Origin: Minisyncoccota bacterium
Lineage (GTDB): Bacteria > Patescibacteriota > Minisyncoccia > Phycocordibacterales > UBA9973
Direction: 5' to 3'
DNA length: 64,000 bases
NCBI GenBank assembly: GCA_041662525.1
Contig: JBAZSF010000001.1
Location: 105,383 to 169,382, forward strand
A program made the translations under genes and the position numbers. The number at the start of each line of letters is the position of its first letter. The first letter of the stretch is position 1. Under the pieces are notes generated by a model. It was not told the DNA's origin. It did no database searches and saw only the letters and a program-made list of their open reading frames with translations. Shown here one piece after another: positions 2,491 to 44,453 of this stretch.

Positions 2491-3870
2491 ATGCCATTAA
2501 AATTTTACAACACTCTAACACGAGAAAAAGAAATCTTTACTCCGATTGATCAAAAAGAAGTTCGTATGTATTCCTGTGGTCCAACAGTTTACAATTATAC
2601 CCATATAGGTAATTTGCGTTCTTTCTTTTTTGCTGATCTAATACGTCGTGCTCTTCGATATGAAGGATTTAAAGTAAAGCAAATAATGAATATTACAGAT
2701 ATAGGACATCTCTCTAGTGATGCGGATTCTGGTGAAGATAAAATGACCAAAGGGCTTTTGCGCGAGGGAAAAGAATTAACTCTCGAAAATATGCGTGAGC
2801 TTGCCGAATTTTATACTGAAAGTTTTCGAGCAGATTTAAAAGCATTAAATATCGAAATACCTTCGGGAATGTATTTTGCTAGTGATTATGTAAAAGAAGA
2901 TATCGAACTAATCCAAAAATTAAAAGAAAGAGAATATGCCTATAGCACTAATGATGGTGTATATTTTGATATTTCAAAAATGCCAGACTATGGAGCGCTT
3001 TGGGGTGGTAAAAGAGATTGGAACAAAGAAGGTGCGCGGGTAAATGAAAATTCAGAGAAAAGAAATCCGGAAGATTTTGCTCTTTGGAAATTTAGCAACT
3101 CCATCGGCTTCGAATCCCCTTTTGGCAAGGGTTTCCCAGGTTGGCACATTGAATGTTCAGCTATGGGATTAAAATTTTTAGGAGAACAATTTGATATTCA
3201 CACTGGAGGGATCGATTTAGTTCCGACTCATCACACCAACGAAATAGCTCAATCAGAATGCGCAACGGGTAAAAAACCTTTTGTTAAATTTTGGATGCAC
3301 AGTGAATTTGTTGATACTGGAAATGAAAAAATGTCTAAATCAGCAAATAATTTTTTAAGATTAGATAGCTTGCTTGAAAAAAGCATAAACCCAATAACAT
3401 ATAGATTCTGGCTTTTAATGGCTAGCTACCGCACAAAGGTTAACTTTAGTTGGGAAGCACTAGAAGCATCTGAAACAGCCCTAAAACGCTTATATGGGCT
3501 ATATTTAGAGTTGGGTGATGAGCATGGGCACATACACAAAGAATACCAGAATAAATTCAAAGAATACCTGGAGGATGATCTAGATACCCCACGGGCATTG
3601 TCTTTATTGTGGGATGTTATGAAAGATAAAAACATGTCCGATGGTGATAAAAAAGCTACTATTCTTGATTTTGATAAAGTCCTCGGGCTTGGTTTTGAAA
3701 ATTTAAAAGAAGAAAAAATTCCTGAAGAAATTAAAAAGCTTGTAGATCTGCGTGAAGAAGCCCGTAATAATAAAGATTTTAAAAAATCTGATGAATTACG
3801 AGATAAAATAAATTCTCTTGGTTATGAAGTGAAAGATACTTCTGAAGGTCAAAAAGTTTCCAAGACTTAA
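2491..3870 (+). CDS. cysS: Cysteinyl-tRNA synthetase
   Basis: 'YSCGPTVYNYTHIGNLRSF' (HIGH region) and 'KMSKS' motif; 459 aa. Confidence 0.95.
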   Translation: MPLKFYNTLTREKEIFTPIDQKEVRMYSCGPTVYNYTHIGNLRSFFFADLIRRALRYEGFKVKQIMNITDIGHLSSDADSGEDKMTKGLLREGKELTLENMRELAEFYTESFRADLKALNIEIPSGMYFASDYVKEDIELIQKLKEREYAYSTNDGVYFDISKMPDYGALWGGKRDWNKEGARVNENSEKRNPEDFALWKFSNSIGFESPFGKGFPGWHIECSAMGLKFLGEQFDIHTGGIDLVPTHHTNEIAQSECATGKKPFVKFWMHSEFVDTGNEKMSKSANNFLRLDSLLEKSINPITYRFWLLMASYRTKVNFSWEALEASETALKRLYGLYLELGDEHGHIHKEYQNKFKEYLEDDLDTPRALSLLWDVMKDKNMSDGDKKATILDFDKVLGLGFENLKEEKIPEEIKKLVDLREEARNNKDFKKSDELRDKINSLGYEVKDTSEGQKVSKT

Positions 3871-4448
3871 TTTATTTTGAAAATCTTTTTACGGTAAATA
3901 CAAAAAGCTATTATTATATTTATTGCTATATTGTAAATTCCAAAAGAATAAATAGTAAAAATCCAATTCTTTATAATGAATAATCCTAAAATATTATTAA
4001 AAATGCCCGAAAAATAAACAGTAGACGTTTCGGTTTCCGGAAATTTCCAAGATTTTATAATAGTCGGAACAGCTGCCAAACCATCACTTAATATTGCAAA
4101 TAAAATTGAAATTCCAAGATTGTGAGTAAAGATATAAAAGACTAAAGCTAAAAAAGAAAGTATCCCACAAACTATGTCCAATCTATTTATTTCCCAAATA
4201 GAATTTTTCCTAAAAAGAGAAACGATTATCACTACCACAGGTCCAAACCCAGCTAAAAAAACTGGAAGTACAGAAAGACCAGCTCCGGCTTTAAGCTGAA
4301 AAAATACAGCAATAAGTGGAGCTAGTGCCCAAAGAATCCAAGAAACTAAATTCGGTTTAGTATTACCGTAAAATATATTTTTAAAATAAAAAAAGTACGC
4401 GATTAAGCTAACGATCACTCCGATATAAATAATATTTTCTGGAAGCAT
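3867..4448 (-). CDS. Hypothetical polytopic membrane protein
   Basis: 193 aa, ~6 hydrophobic segments, no recognisable motif. Confidence 0.4.
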   Translation of the reverse strand: MLPENIIYIGVIVSLIAYFFYFKNIFYGNTKPNLVSWILWALAPLIAVFFQLKAGAGLSVLPVFLAGFGPVVVIIVSLFRKNSIWEINRLDIVCGILSFLALVFYIFTHNLGISILFAILSDGLAAVPTIIKSWKFPETETSTVYFSGIFNNILGLFIIKNWIFTIYSFGIYNIAINIIIAFCIYRKKIFKIN

Positions 4449-4452
4449 TTTT

Positions 4453-5571
4453 TTAAATACCTTCTTTTTTAAGTTCTTCTATAATTTCTCTTGATTTGCG
4501 AGAAAGTTTTGATGGTAATTTGATGTTTAATTTTATTAATAAATCCCCTCTTTTGTTTTTTGCAAAAGGTACTCCTTTGCCACGCACACGTAAAATTTCA
4601 TTTATGGAAACTCCTTCTGGAATCGTTACTTCTATTTCTCCATCTAAAGTTTGGATAGGATATTTAACTCCGAGCAAGGCATCAGAAAGTTTTAAATTTA
4701 AATTCATTACTAGATCATTTCCCTCTCGTTTAAACACAGGATGCGGAGCTACATTTATTTTTATATAAAGATCTCCTGTGGTTCCTTTTGAAACTGCTTC
4801 ACCATAACCCGTCATCCGAATCATCTCACCATCACGGATGCCTGCAGGGATAGCAATAGAAACTTCTTCTTCGCGACGAAGCACTCCTTTGCCTTTGCAT
4901 TTATCACAAATTTCTTTTGGTACTTCACCTGCACCTAAACAAACTTCACAGATTTTTGTACTAGCAATATTGCCAAAAATTGTTCTTTTAGATTCACGAA
5001 TTTTCCCCTGACCATTGCAATGTTTGCAGGTTTCCATTTTAGTTCCAGCTTTCGCACCAGAGCCTCCACATGTCTGACATGTGGAAGTTTTAGTAATTAA
5101 AACTTTTCTAGTTATACCAAAAATAGAATCAGCAAAAGAAATCTGAATCTCGGTGGAAATATCTCTTCCTCGACGTGTTTCTTGTCTTCCTCCTCCCATT
5201 CCACCGCCGAAAAAATCACTAAAAATATCATTGAGATTACCCATATCAAAATCTGCCCCACCGTTTTGGAAACCTGAAAAGTCAAAACCTCCGAAACCTC
5301 CTTGCTGTTGTCCTCCACCATACCCTCCTTGTTGCCCCATATTTTCAAAACCTGATCCATACTGATCATATTTTGAGCGTTTAGTATCATCAGAAAGTAC
5401 TTGATAAGCTTCATTTGCTTGTTTAAATTTTGCTTCATTACCATCTTTTTTATCAGGATGATATTTTTGCGCCAACTTATAAAAAGCCTTCTTTATTTCT
5501 TCTTTGGAGGCAGTTTTATTTACACCTAAAATGTTATAATAGTCTTTGTTCATATGATTTTGCAAAATCAT
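4453..5571 (-). CDS. dnaJ: Chaperone DnaJ (Hsp40)
   Basis: J-domain '[32 protein letters not shown]', Gly/Phe-rich linker, four CxxCxGxG zinc-finger repeats. Only 39 nt downstream of ATPase-1 on the same strand. Confidence 0.95.
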
Positions 5572-5610: not shown

Positions 5611-7113
5611 TTATATCATAGGTTCGGCCTCTTGTGAAGTTTTAGTTTTTATTTCAGAATCATCTTCTTTACTCTCTCCTTCCTCACTTGTTTCTTTTGA
5701 TTTTCTTTTAGCTCTTCCTTCAATAATCGCTTTTTCTTCTGCACTTCGAATAATAGTAGCTTCTTCTTCAGCAATGAGTTTCGCCGCATCACCTTTTGGT
5801 ATTGAATATTTCCTACGAGACGATGCTATAACCTCCTCTCTATAAGATGGATGTGTGGGTGGTAGAATTCGTAGAGTTTCCGCAGAAAATGGATCATAGG
5901 ATTCACCATCAATAGTCATTTTAATATAAAATTCTCCAACTGCGAGATTGATCATGTCTTTCACATCAAAAAGTGGCGCAAATTCTGGTTTCATTTTAAC
6001 TGCATCTTCACCACCAATACGAAAAGTAATAACACTTCCACAATTACCAAGCACGGCTTGATGAATTTTAGGTAAAATTTGCCCGACATACTGATGCGCC
6101 ATGGTTAAATTCAGCGCATATTTTCTCGCCTCTGATAAAATATTTTCAAAAGTCTGAGTAACTACATTTTGAAACTCATCTACGTATAAATAAAAGTCTG
6201 TACGATCTTTTTCTGGGATAGCGGCACGCTCCATGCCGGCTTGTTTTATTTTTGTCAAAAACATGGAACCAAGAAATGAAGAATTCTCTTCCCCCAGACG
6301 GCCCTTGGAAAGATTAATTAAAATAATTTTTTGTTCATTCATCAATTTACTAATATCAATCTTATTTTGCTTTTGTCCAAAAATATTTCGAAGCAATGGA
6401 TCAGATAAAAATTGCCCAAGCTTATTTACAAGCGGAATGATCGCGTCAGTGTCGAATTTCTCAGACCAATCAGCGAATTCAATAGCGAAGAATCTTTTAA
6501 CCATGTCATCTGTAATATATTCCACCACCTTCTGTCTGTAATTTCTGTCGGTCAACATTGAGATCATTCCTCGCATCGTAGCGTGCGGATAGTCGAGCAG
6601 GGCCAAACAAGTAAAACGAAAAACGTGTTCTAGGCGTGGTGTCCAGTTTGCTCCGAATTGTTTTTGAAAAACTTCGATCAATCCCTGTGTTAATTGAAAT
6701 TTAAATAATGGATCAACATTTGCTAAAGGATTGAAAGAAGCTGGGAAATCTAAATCTGTAGGGTCGATAATGCAAACATCTTCGATACGTTCTTTTGGGA
6801 TATAATCAAGAATTGCGTTTATTTCATCTCCGTGCGGATCAATCAAACAGATACCATGACCATAGGTAATATCTTGACGCATAAAAAGCTCAAGTAATTT
6901 ACTTTTTCCAACACCGGACTTTCCAATAATATAAAGATGCCTTCGGCGATCTACTCTTTTAATACCAAAAACAAATTTCTTTTCTTCTAATGAAGCGACA
7001 TAATTTGTTCGCCCAATAAAAGAAGCGTCCTCAGGGTTAACTTTACCAAAAACTGGTAATTCTGGTGGTGGTGGTCCGTATTTTATTATTTGCACTCGAT
7101 TCAGCTTGGACAT
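5611..7113 (-). CDS. Soluble TrwB/TraD/VirD4-like (type IV coupling protein family) P-loop ATPase, paralog 1, no TM anchor
   Basis: Walker A 'IGKSGVGKS', then 'LIDPHGDE...IIDPTD' (compare remembered TrwB 'GATGTGKS..VIVDPNGD..IILNPYD'), Walker B 'DFYLYVDEFQNV', 'TMAHQYVGQ'. No N-terminal hydrophobic helices; acidic Ser/Glu-rich C-terminal tail. Confidence 0.65.
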   Translation of the reverse strand: MSKLNRVQIIKYGPPPPELPVFGKVNPEDASFIGRTNYVASLEEKKFVFGIKRVDRRRHLYIIGKSGVGKSKLLELFMRQDITYGHGICLIDPHGDEINAILDYIPKERIEDVCIIDPTDLDFPASFNPLANVDPLFKFQLTQGLIEVFQKQFGANWTPRLEHVFRFTCLALLDYPHATMRGMISMLTDRNYRQKVVEYITDDMVKRFFAIEFADWSEKFDTDAIIPLVNKLGQFLSDPLLRNIFGQKQNKIDISKLMNEQKIILINLSKGRLGEENSSFLGSMFLTKIKQAGMERAAIPEKDRTDFYLYVDEFQNVVTQTFENILSEARKYALNLTMAHQYVGQILPKIHQAVLGNCGSVITFRIGGEDAVKMKPEFAPLFDVKDMINLAVGEFYIKMTIDGESYDPFSAETLRILPPTHPSYREEVIASSRRKYSIPKGDAAKLIAEEEATIIRSAEEKAIIEGRAKRKSKETSEEGESKEDDSEIKTKTSQEAEPMI

Positions 7114-7137: not shown

Positions 7138-8889
7138 CTAGTAAACCTCTTGCTGATAACATTTTTCGCAATACACTATTTCAGGGCGATCGGGAGCATA
7201 GCTCGTCTCAAACTCTATCTCGCACTTACTTGCTCCATGAGAATGATTTGGTTTAGTACACATACAAGACCTATGCCAGAGTTTCATAGGATTACGCATT
7301 TTCAACCTATTTTCATGACGACACAAAAAACATAACCTAGGTAAAGGTACTCCAAGTTTTCGATATAAATTTAATTCATCTATAGTAATTTTATAAGCCC
7401 CTCTACAATAATTACTGAATTTTCCTTTATTTCCACATCCAATAATTTCTTTTGTAATAGAATTTTTAACATCATCTAAATTATCAGGAAAATTTTTTGA
7501 TTCAATTGTTGTTTTATATTCATTTCCTGATCTTTCACGCCATCGATATCCCATTTTAAGTGCCTGTTCCTTCTCTATGGGAAAATAATCTTGTGCCTGA
7601 GTTTCATTGTAGCAAAAAGTAGAAAGTTCACTGGGAAAAAATTCTCCATATTTGTATATAATTCCTCTCTTGTCCACATAGGGTACTTCATTCATTTGTT
7701 CTTTGATTTTTGGAATTAATTTTTCATATTCTTCTTTAAAGTATTGTTTGTTTAAAATACAATATTTTTTATTTCGCACACCAATACAACCAAATAAATT
7801 TGAAGACCCGTGGCAATTAAAAGAATACTCAATATCATTTGAACCATAGATCACACTGCCAAAAAGATTGCGAAAACCGCCTATTCCTGTATCAAATACC
7901 TCATAAAGCATTTCGCCTTCCCCTACTCCAGGCCCAGAATCATAAGCATCTTTAAGACTTTTTACTGACCAATGTGAATATTTTGAATCTTCAATTTGTC
8001 CATTTGCATCAAAACAAATTTTGCAATTTTTTGTACCTTCTAAGTTATCACCTGTTGAATTTACCACCTTTATTTGAACAGCAAAGCGATGCAATGAATT
8101 AAGATATAATTCTTTAAACTTATTTTTAAGTTCTAAAATAGTTTTATAATCTTTAAGATTATATTCAGCTAATTTTCTGTGATATTCTTCCCTAGAAAGC
8201 TGTTCATTCCACATGCAATATGATTTATTGCGCAAATTAGTACAACCAAAACAATCTGTGCATCCTACGCAATCATAAAGAAAATATGAATCTACGCAAC
8301 TTTTACAATTCAGAGAATAAAGTAAATGATAACTGTCCGAACAAATTACATCTTCATAACAAAGCTCAGAACGATTGACAACATATAAATCTGCAGAATC
8401 TTTTGTCCCGGTAATTCTATTAGAATACAAAGTTCTTTCTATTCTCCATGAACCAGAACACATATAGCAGTCCTTGCTAGCTTCTGCGATATTACAATAA
8501 TCGCTATTTGTTGCATTTACATTTGAAAGGGCTTGGAGGGGAATATTATTTCTTAAATTTTTCCACTGTTCAAAAAAAGGTTTAGAAAAATCATATTCTT
8601 TGCCATAAGAAAGCGGATCCCAGCCATCTCCCCACCAAGCATCAGCACAATACACAGTAAGTTTTTCTTCTGGAGGTAAAAAAGAAATAAGCATTTCGTC
8701 ATGACCTGGCGCATCACATTTTCTTTTGAACAAAGACATCTCGTTACGCCAAGTTATACGTCTGATAGTTCTGCATTCCGGACAAAAAGTCGGAGGTGGA
8801 ACTTTCATCTTTTTATAAAAGTTAAAATCCTCTAGTTCGATGACAAAGTCTTGTTTACAATTTTGGCAATTTTTAGTTTCAGAATTCAT
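7138..8889 (-). CDS. Cysteine-rich (~33 Cys) internally duplicated zinc-ribbon protein, paralog 1 of a 3-member family of unknown function
   Basis: 583 aa. N-terminal ribbon 'CQNCKQDF..FNFYKKMKVPPPTFCPECR' and homologous C-terminal module 'LNLYRKLGVPLPRLCFLCR'. Two central Cys clusters each ending 'CFGC..LRNK.YC..N.Q.S.EEY'. Start is 1 nt after the ATPase-2 stop. Confidence 0.6.
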   Translation of the reverse strand: MNSETKNCQNCKQDFVIELEDFNFYKKMKVPPPTFCPECRTIRRITWRNEMSLFKRKCDAPGHDEMLISFLPPEEKLTVYCADAWWGDGWDPLSYGKEYDFSKPFFEQWKNLRNNIPLQALSNVNATNSDYCNIAEASKDCYMCSGSWRIERTLYSNRITGTKDSADLYVVNRSELCYEDVICSDSYHLLYSLNCKSCVDSYFLYDCVGCTDCFGCTNLRNKSYCMWNEQLSREEYHRKLAEYNLKDYKTILELKNKFKELYLNSLHRFAVQIKVVNSTGDNLEGTKNCKICFDANGQIEDSKYSHWSVKSLKDAYDSGPGVGEGEMLYEVFDTGIGGFRNLFGSVIYGSNDIEYSFNCHGSSNLFGCIGVRNKKYCILNKQYFKEEYEKLIPKIKEQMNEVPYVDKRGIIYKYGEFFPSELSTFCYNETQAQDYFPIEKEQALKMGYRWRERSGNEYKTTIESKNFPDNLDDVKNSITKEIIGCGNKGKFSNYCRGAYKITIDELNLYRKLGVPLPRLCFLCRHENRLKMRNPMKLWHRSCMCTKPNHSHGASKCEIEFETSYAPDRPEIVYCEKCYQQEVY

Positions 8890-8890: not shown

Positions 8891-10894
8891 CTATTCCAAA
8901 ATTTTTCTTAAAACATCTTCGGGAACTTCCTTTGTTGCTGGTTTTTGAGGTATAGGAGTTGCCGAAGGTGAAGCCGTAGGTCCTGAGTTTGTCGAAGGAG
9001 TGATTTTTTCCTCAATCAAATCTTTTAATTTATTCATATCTTCTGCTGTGGCTGCACGATCTACGCCTATTGGACGAGCAGGTTTTTTTACTTCTTGCAT
9101 TTTATTTTTTAAAGAATCGAGCGAAATAGGAGTTGGGGTTGAAATAGGTGCTGGGGTAGATTTAGCTTCTACCACTACTTTATTTAAAACATCCTTTAAT
9201 GCTGAGGTATCCCTATTTATTGGATAAGTTGACTTGGGCCTGACTGGATAAGTAGGTGTAGGTTTAATTGGGGCTGGTTTGGTAAATACTTTTTTAAAAG
9301 TCTTAATTATTCCAGCAGGTTTTACAGGGGCGGTAGTTTGTTGAAATTCGATACCTAAATCAGCTAGTGGTTTATAAAATTTAGATTCATCATATTTGAT
9401 TTGATCTTGTCCCCTTTTTTCCACCTTTACTTCTCCGGATTTTATTTTTGCAATACATTCTTTACAATAAGCTGCTCGGCCCGGCTCAGGTTTAAAGGGC
9501 ACTGTTTTTTCTAGTTTACAAAGCGAACAAATTACTGGAAATTTTTCTATATTTCCATTGGTAGTATATGTATCACTACCTAATGACATTCCGCTCCATT
9601 CATTAATTTCTCGCTCCACTACCTCCCTAGACCTACAATAAATGGCACGGGAAGATTGTATTACTGCTTCTTCTATTTTTTTATCCCCAGACTTTACCAT
9701 GGGTGGTAAAGTCTTAGCGGAGAATGGACGGGATGTCACACCATCAATCATTAACTTTAAATAAATTTTATAGTTCGGCAAATTAACAATATCTCCCGGA
9801 GTAAATTCTGGATCAAATTCTTTTTCCAAAAAGTCTGCATCGTCCGAACCAACTCTAAAAACTATCATTGTACCTACGTTACCAAAGACAGCATCACGCA
9901 CCGCAGAGCTTTTATCCACCACGAGCTGTGCAGTATACTGATGCGCCACAGTTAGATTTAGTCTGTACTTTCTAGCTTCAGACAAAATACCAGCAAAAGC
10001 ATCTGTCACAAAGTTTTGGAATTCGTCCACATAGAGATAAAAATCTTTTCGATGTTCTTCGGGAATACGCACGCGTTCCATGGCGGCAAGTTGAATCTTA
10101 GTAATGATCATCCCACCCAAAAGCCCAGAATTGTCTTCACCGATGCGTCCTTTGGAAACGTTCACTAGAAATATCTTCCCATCATTCATAATATCAAAAA
10201 TATTAATAGTACTTTTAGATTGACCGACTACGTTTCGAATAATAGAAGTAGAAAGAAATTGTCCGACTTTATTTTGAATCGGAGCGATAGCTTCATTGCG
10301 AAATTTGTCTTGCCAAGCTTCATATTCATGCACCCAAAAAGCTTTGATCACGGGATCTTTTAAATTAGCAATTATTTTTTGACGATAATCCTTGTCCACC
10401 AGCATTCTAGGGATTCCCAAAAGCGTCGTCCCGGGAGTATCTAGCAATGCTAAAATACAATTATTCAAAATGTATTCCATTCGAGCACTCCAAGCATTCG
10501 CCCAGATTTTAGTAAAAATACCCATGAGTCCAGACGCCACTAAATGTTTATATTGCGGATCAATTAATTCTAAAACATTAAAACCAATATGGTAGTCCAC
10601 ATCTGCGGGATTAAAATAAACTACGTCTTTCATGCGCTCCGGCGGAATAGCAGACAAAACTCCTTCGACGAGTTCCCCGTGCGGATCAACCACACAAACA
10701 CCTTCACCGTTCTGAATATTCTGAATGATCATATTAAACATCAATACAGATTTACCCGAACCAGATTTTCCAAGAATATAAACATGCTGACGTCTGTCCT
10801 TGCGCTTGATACCAAAGAGCTGATTTTTATCACGAAAAGTTGTGAGCCCAAGATAAGTAATTTCTCTATTTATAGGTATTTCTGGAAGTTCCAT
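8891..10894 (-). CDS. Soluble TrwB/VirD4-like P-loop ATPase, paralog 2, with C-terminal CxxC..CxxC zinc ribbon and Pro/Thr-rich tail
   Basis: 'ILGKSGSGKS', 'VVDPHGE', 'FYLYVDEFQNFV', 'TVAHQY'. C-terminal 'CSLCKLEKTVPFKPEPGRAAYCKECI' followed by a P/T/S-rich low-complexity region (~230 aa). Confidence 0.65.
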   Translation of the reverse strand: MELPEIPINREITYLGLTTFRDKNQLFGIKRKDRRQHVYILGKSGSGKSVLMFNMIIQNIQNGEGVCVVDPHGELVEGVLSAIPPERMKDVVYFNPADVDYHIGFNVLELIDPQYKHLVASGLMGIFTKIWANAWSARMEYILNNCILALLDTPGTTLLGIPRMLVDKDYRQKIIANLKDPVIKAFWVHEYEAWQDKFRNEAIAPIQNKVGQFLSTSIIRNVVGQSKSTINIFDIMNDGKIFLVNVSKGRIGEDNSGLLGGMIITKIQLAAMERVRIPEEHRKDFYLYVDEFQNFVTDAFAGILSEARKYRLNLTVAHQYTAQLVVDKSSAVRDAVFGNVGTMIVFRVGSDDADFLEKEFDPEFTPGDIVNLPNYKIYLKLMIDGVTSRPFSAKTLPPMVKSGDKKIEEAVIQSSRAIYCRSREVVEREINEWSGMSLGSDTYTTNGNIEKFPVICSLCKLEKTVPFKPEPGRAAYCKECIAKIKSGEVKVEKRGQDQIKYDESKFYKPLADLGIEFQQTTAPVKPAGIIKTFKKVFTKPAPIKPTPTYPVRPKSTYPINRDTSALKDVLNKVVVEAKSTPAPISTPTPISLDSLKNKMQEVKKPARPIGVDRAATAEDMNKLKDLIEEKITPSTNSGPTASPSATPIPQKPATKEVPEDVLRKILE

Positions 10895-10928
10895 ATAGTA
10901 TATATTTTACAACAAAATCACAAAAACA

Positions 10929-10950
10929 AAAAGCCCCTTATGGGGCTTTT
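10929..10950. terminator. Rho-independent terminator downstream of dnaK (minus-strand sense)
   Basis: Hairpin aaagcccc-ttat-ggggcttt; on the minus strand it is followed by a T-run. Confidence 0.6.
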
Positions 10951-11043
10951 CAAAAAATTTAGAAAATAATTTTTTTGAACGGTCTGGCTGGGGTGGGACC
11001 CAGAGAACCGAGGACCTGAGAAAAAATTGATTTTCTAAATTTT

Positions 11044-12948
11044 TTACACCTTTGGTTCTTCGCCTTCGGGACCTTTTTCTTTAAATTCTGCGTCATGAAC
11101 TTCGGCTGGTTGTTCTTCAGGGGCACTAGCGGGAGGAGTTTCTGCTCCAGCTTTCGCCATCGCTTCCCCTATTTTTGACATTTCGGCAGAAAGCTCTTCG
11201 GTGGCTTTTTTAATTCCCTCACCATCAGTGCCATCTTTAACACCTCGCAAAGCAGTTATCTTTGCATTTACTTCATCTTTTAATTCTACAGGGATTTTTG
11301 CTTCATTATCCTTAAGAGCTTTTTCAGCAGTATAAATAATCATTTCTGCTGTATTTTTTACTTCTGCGTTCTCTTTTTTCTTCTTATCTTCCTCTGCGTG
11401 AAGCTCTGCATCAGCTTGCATTTTTTTGATATCTTCTTCTTTGAGTCCAGAGCTTGCTTCAATTTTAATTGATTGAGTTTTACCTGAGGCTTTATCTTTT
11501 GCGGAAACATTTAAGATTCCATTCACATCCACATCAAAAGCAACTTCAATCTGAGGCATCCCGCGAGGTGCTGGTGGAACTCCATCTAAAATAAATCGGC
11601 CGAGAGATTTATTGTCGGACGCCATAGGACGTTCTCCTTGCACGATGTGTATTTCAACAGAAGTCTGATTGTCTGCAGCGGTAGAAAATGTTTGAGACTT
11701 GCTTGATGGGATAGTGGTATTTCTTTCAATCAATTTTGTAGCCACTCCTCCTAAGGTTTCAATACCTAAAGATAGCGGTATTACATCAAGCAGTAAAACA
11801 TCTCGCACATCACCTTGTAACACGCCTGCCTGAACAGCTGCACCGAGTGCTACTACTTCGTCAGGATTAATGGACATATTTGGAGCTTTGCCGAAAAGTT
11901 CTTGCACTGCAGAAACTATCGCTGGCATTCTAGTCTGACCACCCACCATAATAATTTCATTAATTTCATTAATTTTAAATGGAGATGCGTCTAAAGCTCT
12001 TTTGGTAATCTTGATAGAAAGATCAATATACTCTTTGGCTAAAGATTCCAACATCGCTCGAGACATTTTTAGCAATAAATGTTTCGGCCCAGAAGCATCC
12101 GAAGTAATAAACGGAATATTTATTTCAGTTTCTGTCGTAGTGGAAAGTTCATGTTTAGCTTTTTCTGCAGCTTCTTTTAATCTTTGATGCGCTAGAGGGT
12201 CTTTGATCACATCAATACCAGACTCTTTTTTATACTCTTCAGCGATCCAAGAAATTATTTTTCTATCAATATCTCCTCCACCCATATGACTATCCCCATC
12301 AGTAGATTTAACTTCTATCACATCATCGCCTATTTCCAGCACAGACACGTCAAAGGTTCCCCCACCGAAATCGTAGACAACAATCTTTTCATTTTTCTTT
12401 TTATTGAATCCATAAGCAAGCGCAGCAGCAGTCGGCTCATTAATAATACGCTTCACATCCAGACCAGCAATTGCTCCTGCATCTTTGGTAGCTTTTCTTT
12501 GCGCATCATTAAAATATGCTGGTACGGTTATTATCGCTTCAGTAATTTTTTCTCCCAATTTCGCCTCAACATCAGCTTTTATTTTTTGCAAAGTCATTGC
12601 GGAAATTTCTTCTGGTCGATAAAATTTATCTGACATTTTTATTTTTACACCACCTCCTTCTCCTGCTTCAATTTTAAAAGATGCTGTCTCTCGATCTTTT
12701 TGCACTTCCGGATCATCAAATCGATGCCCCATATAACGCTTGATTTCAGCAATGGTATTTTCTGGATTTGTGACCGCTTGTCTTTTTGCAAGAAGACCGA
12801 CAATACGATCTCCATTTTTTGCAGTTGCCACGACAGAAGGTGTCGTACGATTACCTTCCACATTTTCTACTATCTTTGGTGCGCCACCTTCAATGATAGC
12901 GACTGCTGAATTTGTTGTACCTAAATCTATACCTATTATTTTTGACAT
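11044..12948 (-). CDS. dnaK: Chaperone DnaK (Hsp70)
   Basis: '[13 protein letters not shown]', '[10 protein letters not shown]', 634 aa, acidic C-terminus. Confidence 0.97.
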
Positions 12949-13047: not shown

Positions 13048-13563
13048 ATGTCAAGTAATAAAGATTATTCTAATAAAATACTTAAAATTTTAGGTAGAAA
13101 AAATGCTGTTTCTTTGCCAGAACTAAAAGAAAAAATTACTGGAGAAAAATATGCAATCACACGCTGTCTAAAAAATCTTAAAAATTCTGGATTGATAGAA
13201 CAAATACCCTCCCCACAAAATAATTATGCTCGCCTGACAAAACTTGGAAGAAAAAAAATGCATAGTTTAGAGTTGGATAGTGACACAACTCTTGTAAACA
13301 CTTCTTGGGATGGATTTTGGAGAATTATTCTACTTGATCTGCCTGAAAACAGAAAAAATGAACGGGAGTCTCTACGTTACCTTCTTAAAAAGGCTGGCTT
13401 CGTATGTCTAAAAAATTCCGCTTGGATATCCCCATTCCCCTTTGAACATTTATTTACGAATATTAAAAAAGACCTAGGACTTACCACTGAGATAATGATT
13501 ATCGTCACCGAAAATATAGATGAGGAAAGCAAAAAAGTTTTATTTGAAACTTTTGGAAAATAA
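13048..13563 (+). CDS. Short PaaX-like winged-helix transcriptional regulator
   Basis: N-terminal wHTH; C-terminal 'WDGFWRIILLDLPENRKNERESLRYLLKKAGFVCLKNSAWISP' matches the PaaX C-domain pattern 'WDG.W.lv.fd.pe..r..R..lr..L...Gf..l...vw..P'. Confidence 0.5.
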   Translation: MSSNKDYSNKILKILGRKNAVSLPELKEKITGEKYAITRCLKNLKNSGLIEQIPSPQNNYARLTKLGRKKMHSLELDSDTTLVNTSWDGFWRIILLDLPENRKNERESLRYLLKKAGFVCLKNSAWISPFPFEHLFTNIKKDLGLTTEIMIIVTENIDEESKKVLFETFGK

Positions 13564-13626: not shown

Positions 13627-15351
13627 CTAATAAATTTCTTGTTGATAACAACGTTCACAGTAAACTATTTCTGGTCGATCTGGCGCGTAACTAGTCTCAA
13701 ATTCTACTTCACATTTTTGTGTGCCATGTATGTGATTTTTTTTATCACACATACATTGCCTACGAAAAAAAAGAGGTAAATTTCGTAAGGTTAAACGTTC
13801 ATAATGCCGACAATTAATGCAAAAACGCGGTAATGGAAGATTCATTCTTTTTAAAAAATCAAGTTCTGATTTGATTATGCGAAAAGCCCCGGTGCATTCG
13901 TGTTCACAAGACTCATCGTGTGCACATTGAATAGCCTGATTAAGTATGTCATCACTTACATCATTGATATTATCTAAGATGTCTTTATTTTTTAAAGTAA
14001 ATTTATAATTTTGTTTTGTAGTTTCGTACCACGAAAACCCTTTCCTCTTTGCATCTTCTTTACCCAATGGAAAAAATTCGTAAGCAGTAGTTGCTTTGTA
14101 TGGAAAAAAAGAAAATTCACTTGGGAAAAATTCTCCATATTCTTTTGCTTGTTTCATATGTTCAATTATTTTGGGCACTAATTTTACATATTCTTCTTTT
14201 GTGTACTGTTTATTAAAAATACAATATTGCTTATTTCGAAGCGAAACACATCCAAAAAGATCTGATGAATTACTGCAAAAAACACAATAAGTTAAATTTT
14301 TTACATTTGTATAACAATAAGCACTAAATTTTATATTTGATCCCCCATTTCCAACAATAAGACTTTCGTAAATAAGTTCTACATTTTCTCCATAATTTGA
14401 ATAATCATAGCAATCCTTTACAGGTCCCATTAAAATATTTTGGACAAATTTGCTATCTTCCACCATCCTTACACGAAAACAATATTTTGCATTCTTAGAC
14501 CCATAAACATAATCACCAGAAACATTCACATTTTGACGATCGTGAATATATTTTTGCGGGTAATCAAGCCAATGTTTATATACCTCATCTTTTAATACTC
14601 TTAAGGCTTTATTAGAACCTAAATTTAATTCTTTAATATTTTTTAAATAATCTTCTCTAGAATATTGTTTATTAAAAATGCAATATGATTTATTGCGAAG
14701 ATTAATTGAACCAAAACAACTATTGCATCCAATACAATCTTTACACAAAATCATTTCCTGACAACTCTCACAATCAACAGAAAAAAATGTTTTATAACAA
14801 GCTGTAGTATTAATATTTCCATAACTCAATTCACATTGATTTGTCATATGGCTATCAAAGCATTGTTTAGAACCCTTATCCCAAATTAAATATGCAGAAT
14901 CTTCCGCATAAGAGACTCCTCCTCGAACCAAATAACAATTTTTTACATCATGCACATTAGTGCAATAGTAACAATTCACTAAATTATACATAGAATGCGC
15001 AGGTAGTGGCACCCTTAAAAGTAAACTTTTAAACTGTTCGAAAAATGTTTTTGTAAAATCAAAATCACGAGCATACTCAAGTGGATTCCAGGCATCAGAA
15101 ATCCAATAATCTCGATCATATATTTTATAAGGACTTTCTTCGGGAAAAAGTGAAAAAATTTCTTTTCCACCAAGAGCTTCCTTTTTCTTAAATAAATGCC
15201 AATCATTACGCCAGGCCATTCTTCGCTGCATCCTGCATTCCGGACAAAAAGTAGGCGGAGGTACTTTTATCTTTTCATAAAAATTAAAATCCTCCGGCTC
15301 TATGACAAATTCTTTCTTACAATTTTGGCAATTTTTTGTTTCAGATTTCAT
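13627..15351 (-). CDS. Cysteine-rich internally duplicated zinc-ribbon protein, paralog 2
   Basis: 574 aa. First ~45 and last ~30 residues are almost identical to paralog 1 ('MKSETKNCQNCKKEFVIEPEDFNFYEKIKVPPPTFCPECR' and 'KCEVEFETSYAPDRPEIVYCERCYQQEIY'); middle region divergent. Confidence 0.6.
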   Translation of the reverse strand: MKSETKNCQNCKKEFVIEPEDFNFYEKIKVPPPTFCPECRMQRRMAWRNDWHLFKKKEALGGKEIFSLFPEESPYKIYDRDYWISDAWNPLEYARDFDFTKTFFEQFKSLLLRVPLPAHSMYNLVNCYYCTNVHDVKNCYLVRGGVSYAEDSAYLIWDKGSKQCFDSHMTNQCELSYGNINTTACYKTFFSVDCESCQEMILCKDCIGCNSCFGSINLRNKSYCIFNKQYSREDYLKNIKELNLGSNKALRVLKDEVYKHWLDYPQKYIHDRQNVNVSGDYVYGSKNAKYCFRVRMVEDSKFVQNILMGPVKDCYDYSNYGENVELIYESLIVGNGGSNIKFSAYCYTNVKNLTYCVFCSNSSDLFGCVSLRNKQYCIFNKQYTKEEYVKLVPKIIEHMKQAKEYGEFFPSEFSFFPYKATTAYEFFPLGKEDAKRKGFSWYETTKQNYKFTLKNKDILDNINDVSDDILNQAIQCAHDESCEHECTGAFRIIKSELDFLKRMNLPLPRFCINCRHYERLTLRNLPLFFRRQCMCDKKNHIHGTQKCEVEFETSYAPDRPEIVYCERCYQQEIY

Positions 15352-15361: not shown

Positions 15362-15406
15362 TTTCCCCTTCTTCCCCTTCACCAGGTGAAGGGGAAGAAG
15401 GGGAAA
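15362..15406. repeat. 45-bp perfect palindrome (22-bp arms, 1-nt centre), GC-rich, between Cys-rich paralogs 3 and 2
   Basis: tttccccttcttccccttcacc a ggtgaaggggaagaaggggaaa, read directly; the two arms are exact reverse complements. Confidence 0.9.
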
Positions 15407-15408: not shown

Positions 15409-17097
15409 TTAATTTATATTTTGCTTGTAACATTCTTCACAGGCGATTTTTTGATATCCCCATTCTGGTAAATAATACGCTTCAATATCTTTTTTACAAT
15501 AAAAACATTTATATGAATACGCTTGCAAAACAGTTAAATATTTTAAACTATTTTTTATTCTCACATCAAAATGATAACGCGGGAGCGGTATATTATTTTC
15601 TTTATAAAAAGAAAGTTCATTTTGGGCAATATTAAAACGCCAACCTGTTTCTGGGCATAAAAGTGCCTGAGTGATAATAGTATCCGAAACATCTTTCACA
15701 TCATCAGGAAGTTCGTTTGTAGGCATCCCATCTGTCTGACCTTCTGTTGTATCTTCCCAATAACCACCAATCTTTAGCATATCTTCTTTTTTTGTGTTTG
15801 GAAAATAAAAAAACCCAGTAGAGAAATTAAATGGTCCAAGACTCATGGAATAAGGCAAAAATTTTCCATACTCACCTCTTTTTTTCATATCAGAAATAAT
15901 CTCATCCCGTAATTTTTCATATTCCTCTTTAGAATACTGCTTATTTAAAATACAATATTTCTTTTTCCTCAAACCCACACAACCAAAACAATATTCACAC
16001 TCAATACATAAATCTAAATATTCGGAATATCTAGAAGAAGACCAGCTAGAATATTTGAGAGCATAACCGCTGGGTTGGCAAGAACTACAATTCCCTGATA
16101 TTTCTAAATCCTGACAGCCGGTAATATCAATACAAGATTCCAATCCTCTACCCCTAATACAATTAGAACAATCTTCGGATTCTGAAATCGTAAAACAATT
16201 ATGACAATTTTTACAATCCAATAAATAATCTCCAAAAGAATTATGAACTTTTAAATTAAAATTAGGTCTATGCACTACTTCTTCTTGAACTATTTCTTCA
16301 AAATGTTTTTTATGCTTTTGGATAGAATCATAGGAACCAAGTTGAAATGATTTGATTTTTTTATCATATTCTTCTTTGGAGTATTGAACATTTTCTATGC
16401 AAAAAGATTTATTGCGAAGATTCCAGCACATAAAACAATCCTGACAATTCCGACAGTCATATAAAAAGTAAGAATTTATGCAATCTCGAGAATGTTTAGA
16501 GTAAAAAAGTTTATAAGAATGATGGCACTCAGAAGAGTCAAAACATTTTTCACTATTGTAACAAACTATCACATCAATAGAATTTTTTACATTGATGTTT
16601 CTATATGAATAAAATAAGTTTTCACAATCCACCATAGAACGTGAAAGATAACTATCTTTACAACTCCAAACATCATCGCACCAATCACATCCTGTGCTTT
16701 TACTACCATCTTGATGCGGACGAGGCACTTTTTCTTGGAGATTTTTTAATTGCTCAAAAAATGTTTTTTTCTCATCGTAATCTTCTCCATAATTCATTGC
16801 ATCCCATTTATCGCTGTACCATTCAGAAAGAGTGTAGATTGGATATCTGCTATTCTCCGGCAAAACTGTAATCAAACTTTCTCCAGAAAGATCAGATTTA
16901 CCTTTGCGAAATTTTCCAAATACCCAAAAAGACAAGTGCAATTTTACCCGACAGAAAAAACAAAGTGTCGGCAACTCTATATCAACTTTTTTATATAAAG
17001 ATAATTCTCCTTCTGTAATTAAAAAATTATTTCCACAATGCTCACAAATATTAGTTTGTTGGTTCTTTGTATTCATATACATTGACCCTCGCGGCAC
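15409..17097 (-). CDS. Cysteine-rich internally duplicated zinc-ribbon protein, paralog 3 (most divergent; start codon ambiguous, overlaps grpE 3' end)
   Basis: 562 aa. N-terminal 'CEHCGNNFLITEGELSLYKKVDIELPTLCFFCR', central 'CRNCQDCFMCWNLRNKSFC', 'CFGCVGLRKKKYCILNKQYSKEEY', C-terminal 'CFYCKK...CEECYKQ'. Alternative starts: MYMNT at 17082 or MNT at 17076. Confidence 0.55.
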   Translation of the reverse strand: MPRGSMYMNTKNQQTNICEHCGNNFLITEGELSLYKKVDIELPTLCFFCRVKLHLSFWVFGKFRKGKSDLSGESLITVLPENSRYPIYTLSEWYSDKWDAMNYGEDYDEKKTFFEQLKNLQEKVPRPHQDGSKSTGCDWCDDVWSCKDSYLSRSMVDCENLFYSYRNINVKNSIDVIVCYNSEKCFDSSECHHSYKLFYSKHSRDCINSYFLYDCRNCQDCFMCWNLRNKSFCIENVQYSKEEYDKKIKSFQLGSYDSIQKHKKHFEEIVQEEVVHRPNFNLKVHNSFGDYLLDCKNCHNCFTISESEDCSNCIRGRGLESCIDITGCQDLEISGNCSSCQPSGYALKYSSWSSSRYSEYLDLCIECEYCFGCVGLRKKKYCILNKQYSKEEYEKLRDEIISDMKKRGEYGKFLPYSMSLGPFNFSTGFFYFPNTKKEDMLKIGGYWEDTTEGQTDGMPTNELPDDVKDVSDTIITQALLCPETGWRFNIAQNELSFYKENNIPLPRYHFDVRIKNSLKYLTVLQAYSYKCFYCKKDIEAYYLPEWGYQKIACEECYKQNIN

Positions 17098-29429: not shown

Positions 29430-30773
29430 TTATATTGGCAAGTTTGTAGGAGGAGAAGCTTCTTTGGATTCAATACGTTCAAGCGTAGGAACTTTCAAGA
29501 TCTGACCTGGGAAGTGCCAAATAGTCGCAAGCTCTTCAACATTTAAAACATAAGTAAAATGATGAGCATATGCGTTTATAATGCCATCAAAAGGAAATTT
29601 CCAAAGATGCTTGGAAAAAAGATGATGGCGAAGAGGTAAATGAAAGAAAGCTCTTTCTTGATACTCATGCAACATTCTATTCGCCAGCATCATTACTGTT
29701 TCTGTAGATGCGGAAAAAATACCACTATAAAAATCTGCCTGAGCTGAATTCGTACGGTAAAATTCATTACAGTCCGGCTTTGCATACTGACGAAACAAAA
29801 GACGCATGTTTCTTCTATTGCTTAGGTTATAAACTTCTTTTTTTGCTATATACATTATTCGAACACCAGTTTCAAAACCTACCTTTGAAGTCTTGGCAGA
29901 TATTGCTGTAATTATATTTTTATAAACATCAGGGGTACGAATTTCTATACGTGCTCCATCATCTTTTACGGCAGTAAAAGGCTTTAATATTTTGAATATT
30001 TCTTTTTTAGACTCTTCTACCCAACTATGTGGAACATCGTCAGTACTTGGTTTTGGCGTAATAACAATCTGAATCCAGGCCTGCTCCCCTTTCTTGAGCG
30101 AGCCAAAAAATTCCACCACCGGAGAGATGGGATCAACTTTAAATTCTTCTTTCGGGTCTTTGTCCAAGCCGAAATCAACGTATGTTTTAATAGGATAAGC
30201 CTGATGTTTTGTCAGTTTAAATTCACACCCCCAGCCATTCCAAGCACTTTTAGGACTAATCTCATCCACTCCTAAAGTATAGTCTTCAACCACTTTTACT
30301 TGAGCCTGAGGATATTGTGCGTACATTTGAGTCTCAATGAGATCTCTGATACGAGTAGGCGTCCTAATATAAAAATGCACTTGTCCTTCGAGAGAGACAA
30401 TCTCCAATGAAAACCAAAGCCAAACGGCTCCTTGCCACCACTCTTCCTTGCCACCTTTTATACTCCAGTGATAAAGAGCATTGGTAAAAAATAGCTCCAT
30501 CGCTTTTGGACTTCGCAACACTTCGCGCGGAGGCACTATTTCAAGCAAGACGTAATCTATGCCGGAGATAAAATCCTGCTGTACATAGTGAAGCCAAAGT
30601 TTCCAAGCAAGCCACCCTAAAAATATTGTTCCAGCTAAAGCCAAAACTCCTATTACAAGATTATATTTCCACACAAAATAACCTAGAATTATAACTACAA
30701 TCCCAATCCAAGATTCTTTTATAAAATTAAAAAATTTTTCCTCAATGCTAGGTTCTGCTTTTACTTCCGCCAT
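29430..30773 (-). CDS. Hypothetical membrane protein (2 N-terminal TM helices plus large soluble domain)
   Basis: 447 aa, no recognisable motif. Confidence 0.4.
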   Translation of the reverse strand: MAEVKAEPSIEEKFFNFIKESWIGIVVIILGYFVWKYNLVIGVLALAGTIFLGWLAWKLWLHYVQQDFISGIDYVLLEIVPPREVLRSPKAMELFFTNALYHWSIKGGKEEWWQGAVWLWFSLEIVSLEGQVHFYIRTPTRIRDLIETQMYAQYPQAQVKVVEDYTLGVDEISPKSAWNGWGCEFKLTKHQAYPIKTYVDFGLDKDPKEEFKVDPISPVVEFFGSLKKGEQAWIQIVITPKPSTDDVPHSWVEESKKEIFKILKPFTAVKDDGARIEIRTPDVYKNIITAISAKTSKVGFETGVRIMYIAKKEVYNLSNRRNMRLLFRQYAKPDCNEFYRTNSAQADFYSGIFSASTETVMMLANRMLHEYQERAFFHLPLRHHLFSKHLWKFPFDGIINAYAHHFTYVLNVEELATIWHFPGQILKVPTLERIESKEASPPTNLPI

Positions 30774-30791
30774 CCATATATTTTAATATGT

Positions 30792-31823
30792 TTACGCTAT
30801 AGAGTAAAGCCCTTTTTTGTCCTTCTTAAAATATTTTGAATTAGCAAGATTTACCAAAATAGTATTTTTTTTGAAGTATCTTTCTTTCATAACTCTTTTG
30901 ATTATTTCATCCTTTGACAATGGCTCTCCTTCTTTTTTAAGAATGTCCTGTATTACTTCACGAGCAATACCTGCCTTATATCCCCATTCAGCAAGAGCAT
31001 ATATTCCCCTGCCAACTAAAATGAATCGGGAATCTTTGATGAGTTCGTTGTGACAAGTGGCGTAATGTATTTTCTTACCAAAAGTTTTAGAAATAGAATC
31101 TGCCACTTCTTTAAAATGCATTGGGGAACCATGGCGTCTCATCACTAGAAAAGCATAATCTTTCACTCCACGAGTGCGAATGTTTGGCGAAGAAGCCTTA
31201 CCCCATTCTCCTAATTCATTTTTTGAAATAGTTTTAGAAATAGAAAGCCATCTTTTTGCCATCTCTGTATCTCTATATTTCTCGGAAACATCTTTCATTT
31301 GGTCAAAAAATCTCTTAATCATTTCTGTTTCTGGGATAAGATCTTCATCCTTTAAACTTATATAAAGTTTTCGAAGAGCTTCGTGAACTTTTTCAGCCAT
31401 ATCATCATCTACACTATAACGAGTATGAAAATGTTCATCTTCACGATGTTTTTTAAAAACATCAGCTAGTACTAAGAAAAAATTAACATGATTTTGAGTA
31501 TTTTTATCTTTAGAAATATAAGGCAAAAATTCATGTTCAGCAACAATAGATCCTAGATTGTGCACTATTTGTTTTAATTCATCAAAAACAGCCTGCTCAT
31601 TTTTGTAGGCATCAGACTTTTTAATAAGATTAATAGCTGCCTCTTCAACTTGACGAACACGTTCTCTTGTAATTTTATATTTTTTCCCAATCTCTTCGAG
31701 AGTCTTTTTCTTTCCATCAGCAGTTAGACCAAAACGGTTCATTACGACGTCTAGAGTACGACTAGGTAAATGCGATGTTATTCTTTTAGTTATTTTTTGA
31801 GGTTTAAAAGTTATTGTTGCCAT
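30792..31823 (-). CDS. DNA-binding protein with N-terminal sigma-70 region-4-like HTH and C-terminal HARE-HTH-like domain
   Basis: 'TLEEIGKKYKITRERVRQVEEAAINLI' (sigma r4 pattern) and 'MRRHGSPMHFKEVADSI...HNELIKDSRFILVGRGIYALAEWGY' (HARE-HTH pattern). Confidence 0.45.
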   Translation of the reverse strand: MATITFKPQKITKRITSHLPSRTLDVVMNRFGLTADGKKKTLEEIGKKYKITRERVRQVEEAAINLIKKSDAYKNEQAVFDELKQIVHNLGSIVAEHEFLPYISKDKNTQNHVNFFLVLADVFKKHREDEHFHTRYSVDDDMAEKVHEALRKLYISLKDEDLIPETEMIKRFFDQMKDVSEKYRDTEMAKRWLSISKTISKNELGEWGKASSPNIRTRGVKDYAFLVMRRHGSPMHFKEVADSISKTFGKKIHYATCHNELIKDSRFILVGRGIYALAEWGYKAGIAREVIQDILKKEGEPLSKDEIIKRVMKERYFKKNTILVNLANSKYFKKDKKGLYSIA

Positions 31824-44043: not shown

Positions 44044-44115
44044 GGCCTGGTAGCCAAGTGGTAAGGCATTCCTCTGCAAAAGGAATATACGGCGGTTCGA
44101 TTCCGCCCCAGGCCT
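44044..44115 (+). tRNA. tRNA-Cys (GCA)
   Basis: Manual fold: acceptor GGCCUGG/CCAGGCC, D-loop AGCCAAGUGGUAAGGC, anticodon loop CUGCAAA, T-loop GGTTCGATTCC. Confidence 0.85.
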
Positions 44116-44319: not shown

Positions 44320-44353
44320 CAATGCGTTAGGCAAGGCCTAACGCAAAAGTTTT

Positions 44354-44426: not shown

Positions 44427-44453
44427 CAAAGTGCAAGGGCACTTTGTGCGAGC

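Follow-up and report, generated by a model that had tools for sequence, protein, structure and literature searches.

Two VirB4/VirD4-type ATPases without transmembrane helices in a Patescibacteria chromosome, candidate motors of a translocase encoded outside type IV secretion loci

The two ATPases: motifs, family and fold

The window analysed here is the whole stretch of 64,000 nucleotides taken from contig JBAZSF010000001.1 of a Minisyncoccota bacterium (assembly GCA_041662525.1), a low-GC (~34%) housekeeping stretch of a Patescibacteria (Paceibacterota-like) chromosome with genes for DnaB, RecR, CysS, ribosomal proteins, RpoA, AlaRS, MnmA, BipA, ClpB, IF-2, GyrA, SecA and Mur ligases. Two paralogous genes on its minus strand, which we call ATP2 and ATP1, encode P-loop ATPases of the VirB4/VirD4 type without transmembrane (TM) helices: ATP2 (8891..10894) has 667 amino acids (aa) and carries a zinc ribbon and a basic tail, and ATP1 (5611..7113; 500 aa) has an acidic tail and no ribbon. 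Both proteins are 45% identical over 429 aa (E 3e-131). The original prediction, made from the DNA letters alone, had given 8891-10894 for the pair, an interval that belongs to its second paralog, ATP2, the other one lying at 5611-7113.

The motifs that had been announced as hallmarks of type IV coupling proteins (T4CPs), the VirD4-type ATPases of type IV secretion systems (T4SSs), are all found in the pair, with the reservation that the second 'DP.D' exists in ATP1 alone and reads NPAD in ATP2. A motif search of ATP2 located a Walker A GKSGSGKS (aa 42-49; 10748..10771, minus strand) and a Walker B YLYVDEFQ (aa 286-293; 10016..10039, minus strand), together with DPHGE at residue 70, AHQY at 317, CSLC at 456 and CKEC at 477, and the corresponding positions of ATP1 are GKSGVGKS at 64, DPHGD at 92, DPTD at 117, YLYVDEFQ at 308 and AHQY at 339. 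Across 83 ATP1/ATP2 sequences, residues G42, K43, S44, G45, G47 and K48 of Walker A and D290, E291 and F292 of Walker B are invariant.

As anticipated, the best profile matches are T4CP families and not an unrelated group of P-loop proteins. ATP2 scored above the Pfam gathering threshold for TrwB_AAD_bind (PF10412, 39.8 vs 20.5), DUF87 (36.6 vs 23.2), T4SS-DNA_transf (PF02534, 30.6 vs 20.1) and TraG-D_C (PF12696, 24.6 vs 22), so that of the four families that had been proposed for checking only AAA_10 (PF12846) was missed (16 vs 27.5), and ATP1 passed the cut-offs of DUF87 and T4SS-DNA_transf (22.7 vs 20.1). The curated NCBIfam cut-offs for T4CPs were, however, missed by a wide distance (SXT_TraD, 48.6 vs 366; CD1115 VirD4-like, 43.9 vs 250; TraD_Ftype, 24 vs 521), and the VirB4 profiles fared no better (TIGR00929, 11.7 bits vs a cut-off of 643; CD1110, 26.1 vs 325; no PF03135 match in the Pfam and NCBIfam searches). 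The NCBIfam profile of CedD gave a weak match (29.3 bits). Sequence and profile searches of the PDB returned TrwB as the sole match, restricted to the P-loop region and too weak to tell families apart (E 9e-5 and 5e-4). By their profiles, then, the two proteins stand closer to T4CPs than to VirB4, at scores far under the curated family cut-offs. In this regard, a first alternative has to be considered, namely that ATP2 and ATP1 are genuine VirD4-equivalent coupling proteins of the Patescibacteria T4SS, encoded away from virB4 and recruiting effectors or DNA; the T4CP families as best matches and TrwB as the only solved structure reached by sequence speak for it, whereas the distance to the curated T4CP cut-offs speaks against it.

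A structural model of ATP2 residues 1-500, built by AlphaFold 2 (AF2) with 83 sequences (predicted local distance difference test, pLDDT, 75.8; predicted template modelling score, pTM, 0.74), folds into a RecA-like core that is interrupted by an all-helical insertion, with a small beta ribbon at residues 452-465. The insertion, assigned by DSSP on the model, occupies aa ~113-237 of the nucleotide-binding domain (10184..10558, minus strand), where helices 113-134, 137-151, 160-177, 181-215, 217-223 and 232-237 are found between core strands. The C-terminal domains of VirB4 and DptH align equally well to the model, and the helical insertion does not discriminate between families, so the model would place the ATP2 motor in the VirB4/VirD4/DptH branch, with T4CPs not singled out by fold alone. 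As for the membrane, no TM helix had been overlooked: the highest 19-residue Kyte-Doolittle means were 1.13 for ATP2 and 0.98 for ATP1, and among the ATP2-like open reading frames (ORFs) of the 81 loci that we compared this value was at most 1.53. The TM segment comes instead from a separate gene or, in relatives, from a fused DUF8128 domain.

Downstream of the motor, ATP2 carries a CxxC-x17-CxxC zinc ribbon at aa 451-483 (9446..9544, minus strand), which both Pfam (PF23477, zf_Tbcl_2; 34.3 vs 27) and NCBIfam (TIGR04272; 37.3 vs 36) recognise above cut-off, in line with the zinc ribbon first proposed for this paralog. Experimental work has demonstrated that the same domain binds zinc in two small proteins of M. 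mazei (PMC12704099); these Methanosarcina proteins are small and stand alone, unlike ATP2, where an ATPase carries the domain as an appendage at its C-terminal side. The motif is present in 61 of the 81 listed ATP2-like ORFs, and ATP2 orthologues keep all four cysteines at identities as low as 59%, also in clades where no Cys-rich gene (see below) lies within 10 kb.

The tail that follows (aa 491-667; 8894..9424, minus strand) had been described as a long, disordered, P/T/S-rich segment. It is long indeed, and 29% of it is P/T/S, but the composition is chiefly K/P/T/A-rich and basic (isoelectric point, pI, 9.6; 23 Pro and 30 K+R), and far from featureless it contains conserved islands. Such a composition is likely to keep the tail disordered. 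The tails of 66 orthologues have a median length of 218 aa and a median pI of 9.4. The most conspicuous island is the terminus itself, (K/R)EVPEDVLRKILE-COOH, whose conserved peptide (8894..8929, minus strand), a candidate docking peptide, emerged from the comparison of orthologues: EVPEDVLRKILE stands at the extreme C-terminus of 45 listed ATP2 orthologues (loci L001-L046 and L069), and other clades have related amphipathic variants of this ending. A second type of C-terminal peptide, '...(I/L)xPG(E/Q)xxKF-COOH', occurs in its place in ATP2 orthologues from loci L053-L075, with or without the zinc ribbon. The tail of the coupling protein TraD binds TraM, and the long ATP2 tail ending in a conserved peptide recalls it.

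The putative DUF8128 membrane partner and its neighbours

Some 18 kb away from the motors, and as a separate gene, the window encodes a DUF8128-type membrane protein of 447 aa (29430..30773, minus strand), here called c3 or the anchor, with two hydrophobic peaks at residues ~22-57 that would form a TM hairpin, followed by a cytoplasmic domain that resembles the N-terminal domain of VirB4. The connection with the ATPases is provided by fused relatives. Among the best 150 representatives clustered at 50% identity, 51 are extended at the N-terminus by over 250 aa, 27 of them with a clear TM segment at the start of the extension, and the precomputed annotation retrieved for three fused proteins, P0406, P0401 and P0451, assigns the extension to DUF8128 (PF26449). 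BLASTP matches the window anchor with residues 24-420 of P0393, one of the fused proteins (E 1e-41), and residues 9-437 of ATP2 align to residues 424-846 of P0393, so that anchor and ATP2 tile a single fused polypeptide with neither overlap nor loss, a classic fission/fusion link. The term 'soluble' used in the original prediction therefore fits the polypeptides and misleads for the system, which has a two-TM partner. The anchor itself has no PF26449 match in the local copy of Pfam; its DUF8128 membership is indirect, through BLASTP matches to the N-terminal domains of P0412 (9e-30) and of P0406 (L082_1078; 2e-31), the latter with its own precomputed PF26449 match. Outside the clade where the ATPases are linked to dnaK, a membrane protein of this kind (390-470 aa) lies upstream of the ATPase, which is the gene directly downstream of c3 in 20 out of 28 cases.

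A model of the anchor derived from fused representatives (pLDDT 86.4, pTM 0.83) was used for structural comparison. Twelve chains of TrwK, the VirB4 of plasmid R388, ranked first in an independent Foldseek search, and the list of matches for the anchor model contained no RecA-type ATPase and not the entry 4ag5, which covers only the C-terminal domain of VirB4; for these reasons the match most likely corresponds to the N-terminal domain of VirB4. The fused relatives consequently have a VirB3/VirB4-like layout of TM helices, a VirB4-type N-domain and an ATPase, that is, the N-terminal domain plus C-terminal RecA-like ATPase that defines the architecture of VirB4, with a motor whose sequence leans to T4CPs. 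In comparison with known VirB4 proteins (TrwK, the C-terminal domain of T. pseudethanolicus VirB4, and VirB3-VirB4 fusions), the two halves are separate genes in the window and no VirB3, VirB6 or VirB8 was seen nearby, so the pair departs from VirB4 in its sequence profiles and in its lack of linkage to channel genes.

Immediately upstream of the anchor gene lies c5 (30792..31823, minus strand), which encodes a DNA-binding protein with Sigma70_r4 and HARE-HTH domains (Pfam). c5 and c3 are adjacent in 25 loci, a pairing also found in L082, and the order c5-c3-ATPase occurs in 16. c5 is a candidate DNA-binding adaptor of the module. Three arrangements can be told apart: (a) SecD-SecF, c5, c3 and the ATPase, in loci labelled Doudna-, Moran-, Andersen- and Staskawiczbacteria, among others; (b) ATP1, zero to three Cys-rich genes and ATP2; and (c), the one of the window's clade, grpE, Cys-rich genes, a divergent PaaX-like gene, dnaK, ATP2, zero to three Cys-rich genes, ATP1 and dnaJ. 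The window retains from arrangement (a) the c5-c3 pair, at 29430-31823, and the ancestral operon appears to have comprised SecDF, the sigma-r4/HARE-HTH protein, DUF8128 and the ATPase. SecD and SecF neighbour the c5-DUF8128-ATPase block with one orientation in 17 loci (among L048-L081) and also, encoded on the opposite strand, in L082 and L086, a recurrence that either a functional tie or inherited synteny could produce.

Paralog pairs are also recurrent, as 44 of the 81 loci contain two ATPase genes. Two fused DUF8128-ATPase paralogs are located close together, with SecDF adjoining, in L086, where they overlap end to start, and in L082, where two small genes, one of them c5, lie in between. 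We considered whether ATP1 and ATP2 correspond to these two fused paralogs and rejected it: both are closer to the longer one, and the duplications are therefore independent. In P0451 two motors are even fused in one chain. This protein (DUF8128 plus tandem ATPases; L083, 10001-13684; L084, 9616-13299) is flanked by a tyrosine integrase/HTH_17 pair on one side and a Replic_Relax gene on the other, on high-GC metagenome contigs from outside the Patescibacteria that have a second small TrwB_AAD_bind protein nearby, a context suggestive of an integrative mobile element equipped with a minimal transfer apparatus.

Conservation, type IV secretion and the Hsp70 neighbourhood

Each paralog has at least 8,000 relatives in the databases, and those with a named organism are all Patescibacteria; they are annotated either as 'type IV secretion system DNA-binding domain-containing protein' or as 'CxxC-x17-CxxC domain-containing protein'. 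An exhaustive search of 50%-identity representatives retrieved 22,975 clusters at E ≤ 1e-3 and 6,446 at E ≤ 1e-30. The level of conservation is extreme. In the 27 loci that also hold dnaK, median identities to the window proteins were 91.1% for ATP2, 85.2% for ATP1 (whose orthologues range from 83 to 92%), 84.4% for DnaK, 77.9% for GrpE and 76.0% for DnaJ, and the motor domain of ATP2 surpassed DnaK in 26 of them, which suggests that the ATP2 motor is a core gene. Conservation above that of DnaK is unlike the coupling proteins of mobile elements. Moreover, the annotated genes of the window include neither VirB4 or another T4SS component nor a relaxase, no T4SS or relaxase gene occurs in the conserved neighbourhoods (the recurrent operon, L082 and L086), and the VirB3, VirB6 and VirB8 Pfam families are absent among the neighbours in the window, L082 and L086, where some small ORFs were not scanned.

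Altogether, we favour with moderate confidence the reading that ATP2 and ATP1 are free-standing motors of a chromosomal, Patescibacteria-wide VirB4/VirD4-type translocase, encoded outside T4SS loci and probably moving DNA, whose place among the FtsK-HerA ATPases is the VirB4/VirD4 branch. The alternative of genuine coupling proteins deserves to be weighed against it in full. T4CPs are often encoded apart from virB4, and surveys and reviews count these very proteins as the VirD4-like component (PMC12102498, PMC12857230). The DUF8128 domain, being VirB4-like, would slot the motors into the VirB4/VirB3 inner-membrane platform, and could plausibly touch VirB3 or VirB8. There is also a precedent in TraJ/TraI of plasmid pIP501, where a separate two-TM protein is proposed to anchor to the membrane a coupling-type ATPase without TM segments of its own (PMC12857230); TraI, unlike c3, is small and has no VirB4-like domain, and the pair is plasmid-borne, conjugative and placed inside a T4SS operon. 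On the other hand, VirD4-type homologues were reported in 2,918 of 3,035 Patescibacteria genomes (~96%; 5,713 proteins), in comparison with 2,417 genomes (~80%) for VirB4, of which the phylum holds a separate bona fide clade, and just 148 of the 5,713 homologues lie near virB4 (PMC12102498). The same study reported that epibiotic growth of S. epibionticum does not require the T4CP homologue, in a species where the T4SS is essential, and proposed that the gene 'may have been exapted' (PMC12102498). A conserved operon of their own without T4SS genes, and a conservation that conjugative T4CPs do not have, point in the same direction.

With T4CPs such as TrwB of R388, VirD4, TraD, DotL and Cag-beta, ATP2 shares a P-loop nucleotide-binding domain, whose model has a helical insertion to which VirB4 and DptH align equally well, and the PF10412, PF02534 and PF12696 matches above cut-off. 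The ATPases part from them in three respects, that is, the TM domain in the same chain, the linkage to T4SS or relaxase genes and the curated cut-offs: ATP2 and ATP1 have no N-terminal TM helices of their own, the VirB4-type N-domain of their partner or fused relatives is absent from T4CPs, and both are chromosomal, extremely conserved and unlinked in the window to a T4SS or relaxase, ATP2 having in addition the zinc ribbon. The exception to this lack of linkage is P0451, the non-Patescibacteria relative adjoining Replic_Relax. Taking both sides together, we consider rather unlikely that these proteins serve as the coupling proteins of a T4SS.

Anti-phage or anti-plasmid defence of the HerA, DptH or MADS type was considered too. 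PADLOC gave weak mad8 and HerA matches, which concern the ATPases alone, the anchor and the Cys-rich proteins having none, and the candidate was rejected on conservation and context. The near-universal presence of the family (PMC12102498) and its conservation above DnaK are the opposite of what defence islands display, the neighbours are housekeeping genes, and no nuclease, Sir2 or methylase partner is found nearby, all of which makes a defence role extremely improbable.

The local neighbourhood offers a third possibility. The minus strand reads L13, S9, grpE (17051-17671), the Cys-rich genes Cys3 and Cys2, a divergent PaaX/MarR-like gene on the plus strand, dnaK (11044..12948), ATP2, the Cys-rich gene Cys1, ATP1, dnaJ (4453..5571) and a conserved 193-aa ORF (U193; 3867-4448), with dnaK as the upstream neighbour of ATP2 in the window's clade and dnaJ beginning 39 bp past the end of ATP1. 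The closest clade, and no other, keeps the order dnaK-ATP2-...-ATP1-dnaJ, and an ATPase gene is adjacent to dnaJ in 22 loci. U193 starts 4 bp past dnaJ, has no Pfam or PADLOC match and is found in that place in the majority of loci from the closest clade. The genes ATP2-Cys1-ATP1-dnaJ-U193 are tightly packed, with gaps of 1, 24, 39 and 4 bp, and may be co-transcribed. A hairpin similar to an intrinsic terminator, with an 11-bp stem followed by a T-run, occupies the gap between dnaK and ATP2 (10927..10952, minus strand), which suggests that ATP2-Cys1-ATP1-dnaJ forms a transcription unit apart from dnaK. Past the hairpin, just before the ATP2 start codon, we find a TATACT box, and ATP2 may have a promoter of its own, to judge from these signals.

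No CIRCE element was detected in the window, even allowing three mismatches, and with the terminator-like hairpin in between we do not assume co-transcription with dnaK or heat-shock co-regulation. The PaaX_M/MarR-like regulator encoded divergently upstream of dnaK (13048-13563, plus strand) is kept there in 22 related loci, and in view of the missing CIRCE element it may replace HrcA as the regulator of the Hsp70 operon.

The Cys-rich proteins Cys1 (583 aa, 33 Cys; 7138..8889), Cys2 (574 aa, 44% identical to Cys1; 13627..15351) and Cys3 (562 aa, 32% identical to Cys1; 15409..17097) are all encoded on the minus strand, the start codon of Cys1 being 1 bp past the stop of ATP2. They contain 33-36 Cys each, with treble-clef-like modules at both termini and C..C..CFGC..LRNK.YC units in repeats. 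At least 7,270 homologues make up the family, and those listed are all unnamed or 'hypothetical'; no Pfam domain and no sequence relative in the PDB were found for it. Such genes accompany the ATPases in 38 of the 81 loci, in three different arrangements and with zero to six copies. In the close loci L002, L003 and L005, ATP2 is directly followed by ATP1 with no Cys-rich gene between them, and distant clades have none within 10 kb of the ATPases. This recurrence in different gene orders makes a functional link in Paceibacteria plausible, as a later addition to an older module, and it is the gene neighbourhood that bears out the association proposed at the outset.

The other argument then put forward for this pairing, a ribbon type shared by ATP2 and the Cys-rich proteins, proved weak. 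The ribbon of ATP2 is of the zf_Tbcl_2 type, whereas a Pfam scan of 34 Cys-rich proteins gave zf_Tbcl in 17, always weak and under cut-off, and zf_Tbcl_2, equally weak, in three. A hidden Markov model of 186 ATP2 ribbons scored at best 16.9 bits against 123 Cys-rich proteins, with matches scattered over the N-terminus, a point ~35% along the chain and the C-terminus. The likeness would be a resemblance at the level of the class at most, and the ribbon is kept in clades without Cys-rich genes, so we discarded it as evidence of pairing.

These neighbours raise the possibility that the ATPases are protein-handling rings tied to Hsp70, which would have the Cys-rich zinc proteins as clients to be unfolded, threaded or assembled, or else exported jointly with SecDF, the hydrophobic-basic peptide at the C-terminus of ATP2 acting as a handle for DnaK or an adaptor. 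The position of the genes between dnaK and dnaJ in the closest clade, the 39-bp and 1-bp spacings that join ATP1 to dnaJ and Cys1 to ATP2, the repeated presence of Cys-rich genes and the recurrence of SecDF are all in keeping with such a role, and VirB4/VirD4 relatives and EccC are able to move proteins besides DNA. The linkage to dnaK, however, exists in a single clade, the ancestral context elsewhere being c5-DUF8128, and even there the terminator-like hairpin parts dnaK from ATP2. Moreover, there are close loci with no Cys-rich gene between ATP2 and ATP1 and distant clades with none within 10 kb, zinc-folded proteins are poor substrates for threading, and the ribbons are not significantly alike. 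Overall, a protein-handling function seems quite improbable.

Two further features of the window were recorded. The gap between Cys2 and Cys3 (15362-15406) contains a perfect inverted repeat with a 20-bp stem (TTCCCCTTCTTCCCCTTCACC...GGTGAAGGGGAAGAAGGGGAA), the strongest hairpin of the region, and four tRNA genes (Cys-GCA, Leu-TAA, Lys-CTT and Leu-TAG; 44044-44612, plus strand) are located where the GC skew changes sign (~42-48 kb).

A candidate translocase docked at the membrane

Returning to the reading of a T4SS-independent translocase, the following model can be proposed. The motors would form rings, as their relatives do, and, given the recurrence of paralog pairs and tandem-motor fusions, the two paralogs probably cooperate. 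The rings would dock on the VirB4-NTD-like (N-terminal domain) cytoplasmic part of the two-TM DUF8128 protein through the N-terminal strands of ATP2. The zinc ribbon, the basic flexible tail and the C-terminal peptide may act together as a tether that recruits cargo or an adaptor, its candidate partners being the sigma-r4/HARE-HTH protein, whose gene always neighbours that of the anchor, and, in Paceibacteria, the Cys-rich zinc proteins. ATP hydrolysis would then power the movement, at the membrane or through it, of a polymer that is most likely DNA or nucleoprotein.

We infer the DNA cargo from the precedent of the family, the HARE-HTH partner, the mobile-element context of P0451 and the analogy with the CedB/CedD proteins of Sulfolobales, and it is further supported by the basic tail and zinc ribbon of ATP2. 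CedB and CedD, which import chromosomal DNA, are paralogous proteins that combine TM segments, a VirB4-NTD-like domain and a HerA/VirB4-type ATPase outside any classical conjugative element (PMC11868833). They differ from the present system in being archaeal and DNA-damage-induced and in working with the CedA/CedA1 channel and pilus proteins, which were not seen here, and the sequence similarity is limited to the P-loop region.

Several points weigh against this proposal. The nature of the cargo is deduced, and protein handling would also account for the synteny with SecDF and for the genes lying between dnaK and dnaJ. The dispensability of the S. epibionticum homologue sits uneasily with a housekeeping function, if that protein is assumed to belong to the same sub-family, although paralogs could mask a phenotype (PMC12102498). 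The VirB4-NTD-like fold of the anchor is read from a list of structural matches, with no residue-level output, and docking in the window is extrapolated from other genomes, given the 18 kb between anchor and motors. Finally, the absence of T4SS genes covers the 64-kb window, and the rest of the genome could carry them.

A bolder version of the proposal would see in c5, the DUF8128 anchor and the paired motors an unrecognised, phylum-wide membrane pump for DNA or nucleoprotein, independent of T4SSs and part of the core housekeeping machinery, an idea that we consider unlikely. If true, it could serve, for example, for ComEC-independent DNA uptake or for partitioning in these nucleotide-auxotrophic epibionts, and it would represent a lineage keeping a VirB4-type N-domain together with a T4CP-type motor, with a bearing on the divergence of VirB4 and VirD4.

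That Patescibacteria have T4CP homologues encoded away from virB4 was already published. In the literature that we searched we found no description of the split architecture, the c5-DUF8128-ATPase operon, the conservation above DnaK, the C-terminal peptide or the associations with a paralog and with Cys-rich proteins, nor of the VirB4-like fold of DUF8128, a domain that is not mentioned there.

Patescibacteria represent a large share of bacterial diversity, with tiny genomes and a dependence on hosts, and for most of their conserved genes no role is known. In the present case, a gene pair entered in surveys just as "VirD4-like T4SS components" turns out to be more conserved than DnaK, present in ~96% of genomes, unlinked to T4SSs and, by its fused relatives, the motor half of a split or fused machine. 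Experiments should consequently be directed at the anchor, the HARE-HTH protein and both paralogs together, and not at the T4SS. The system is a candidate for the unexplained ComEC-independent traffic of nucleic acids in these bacteria, and its intermediate architecture may be relevant to the origin of both signature ATPases of the T4SS.

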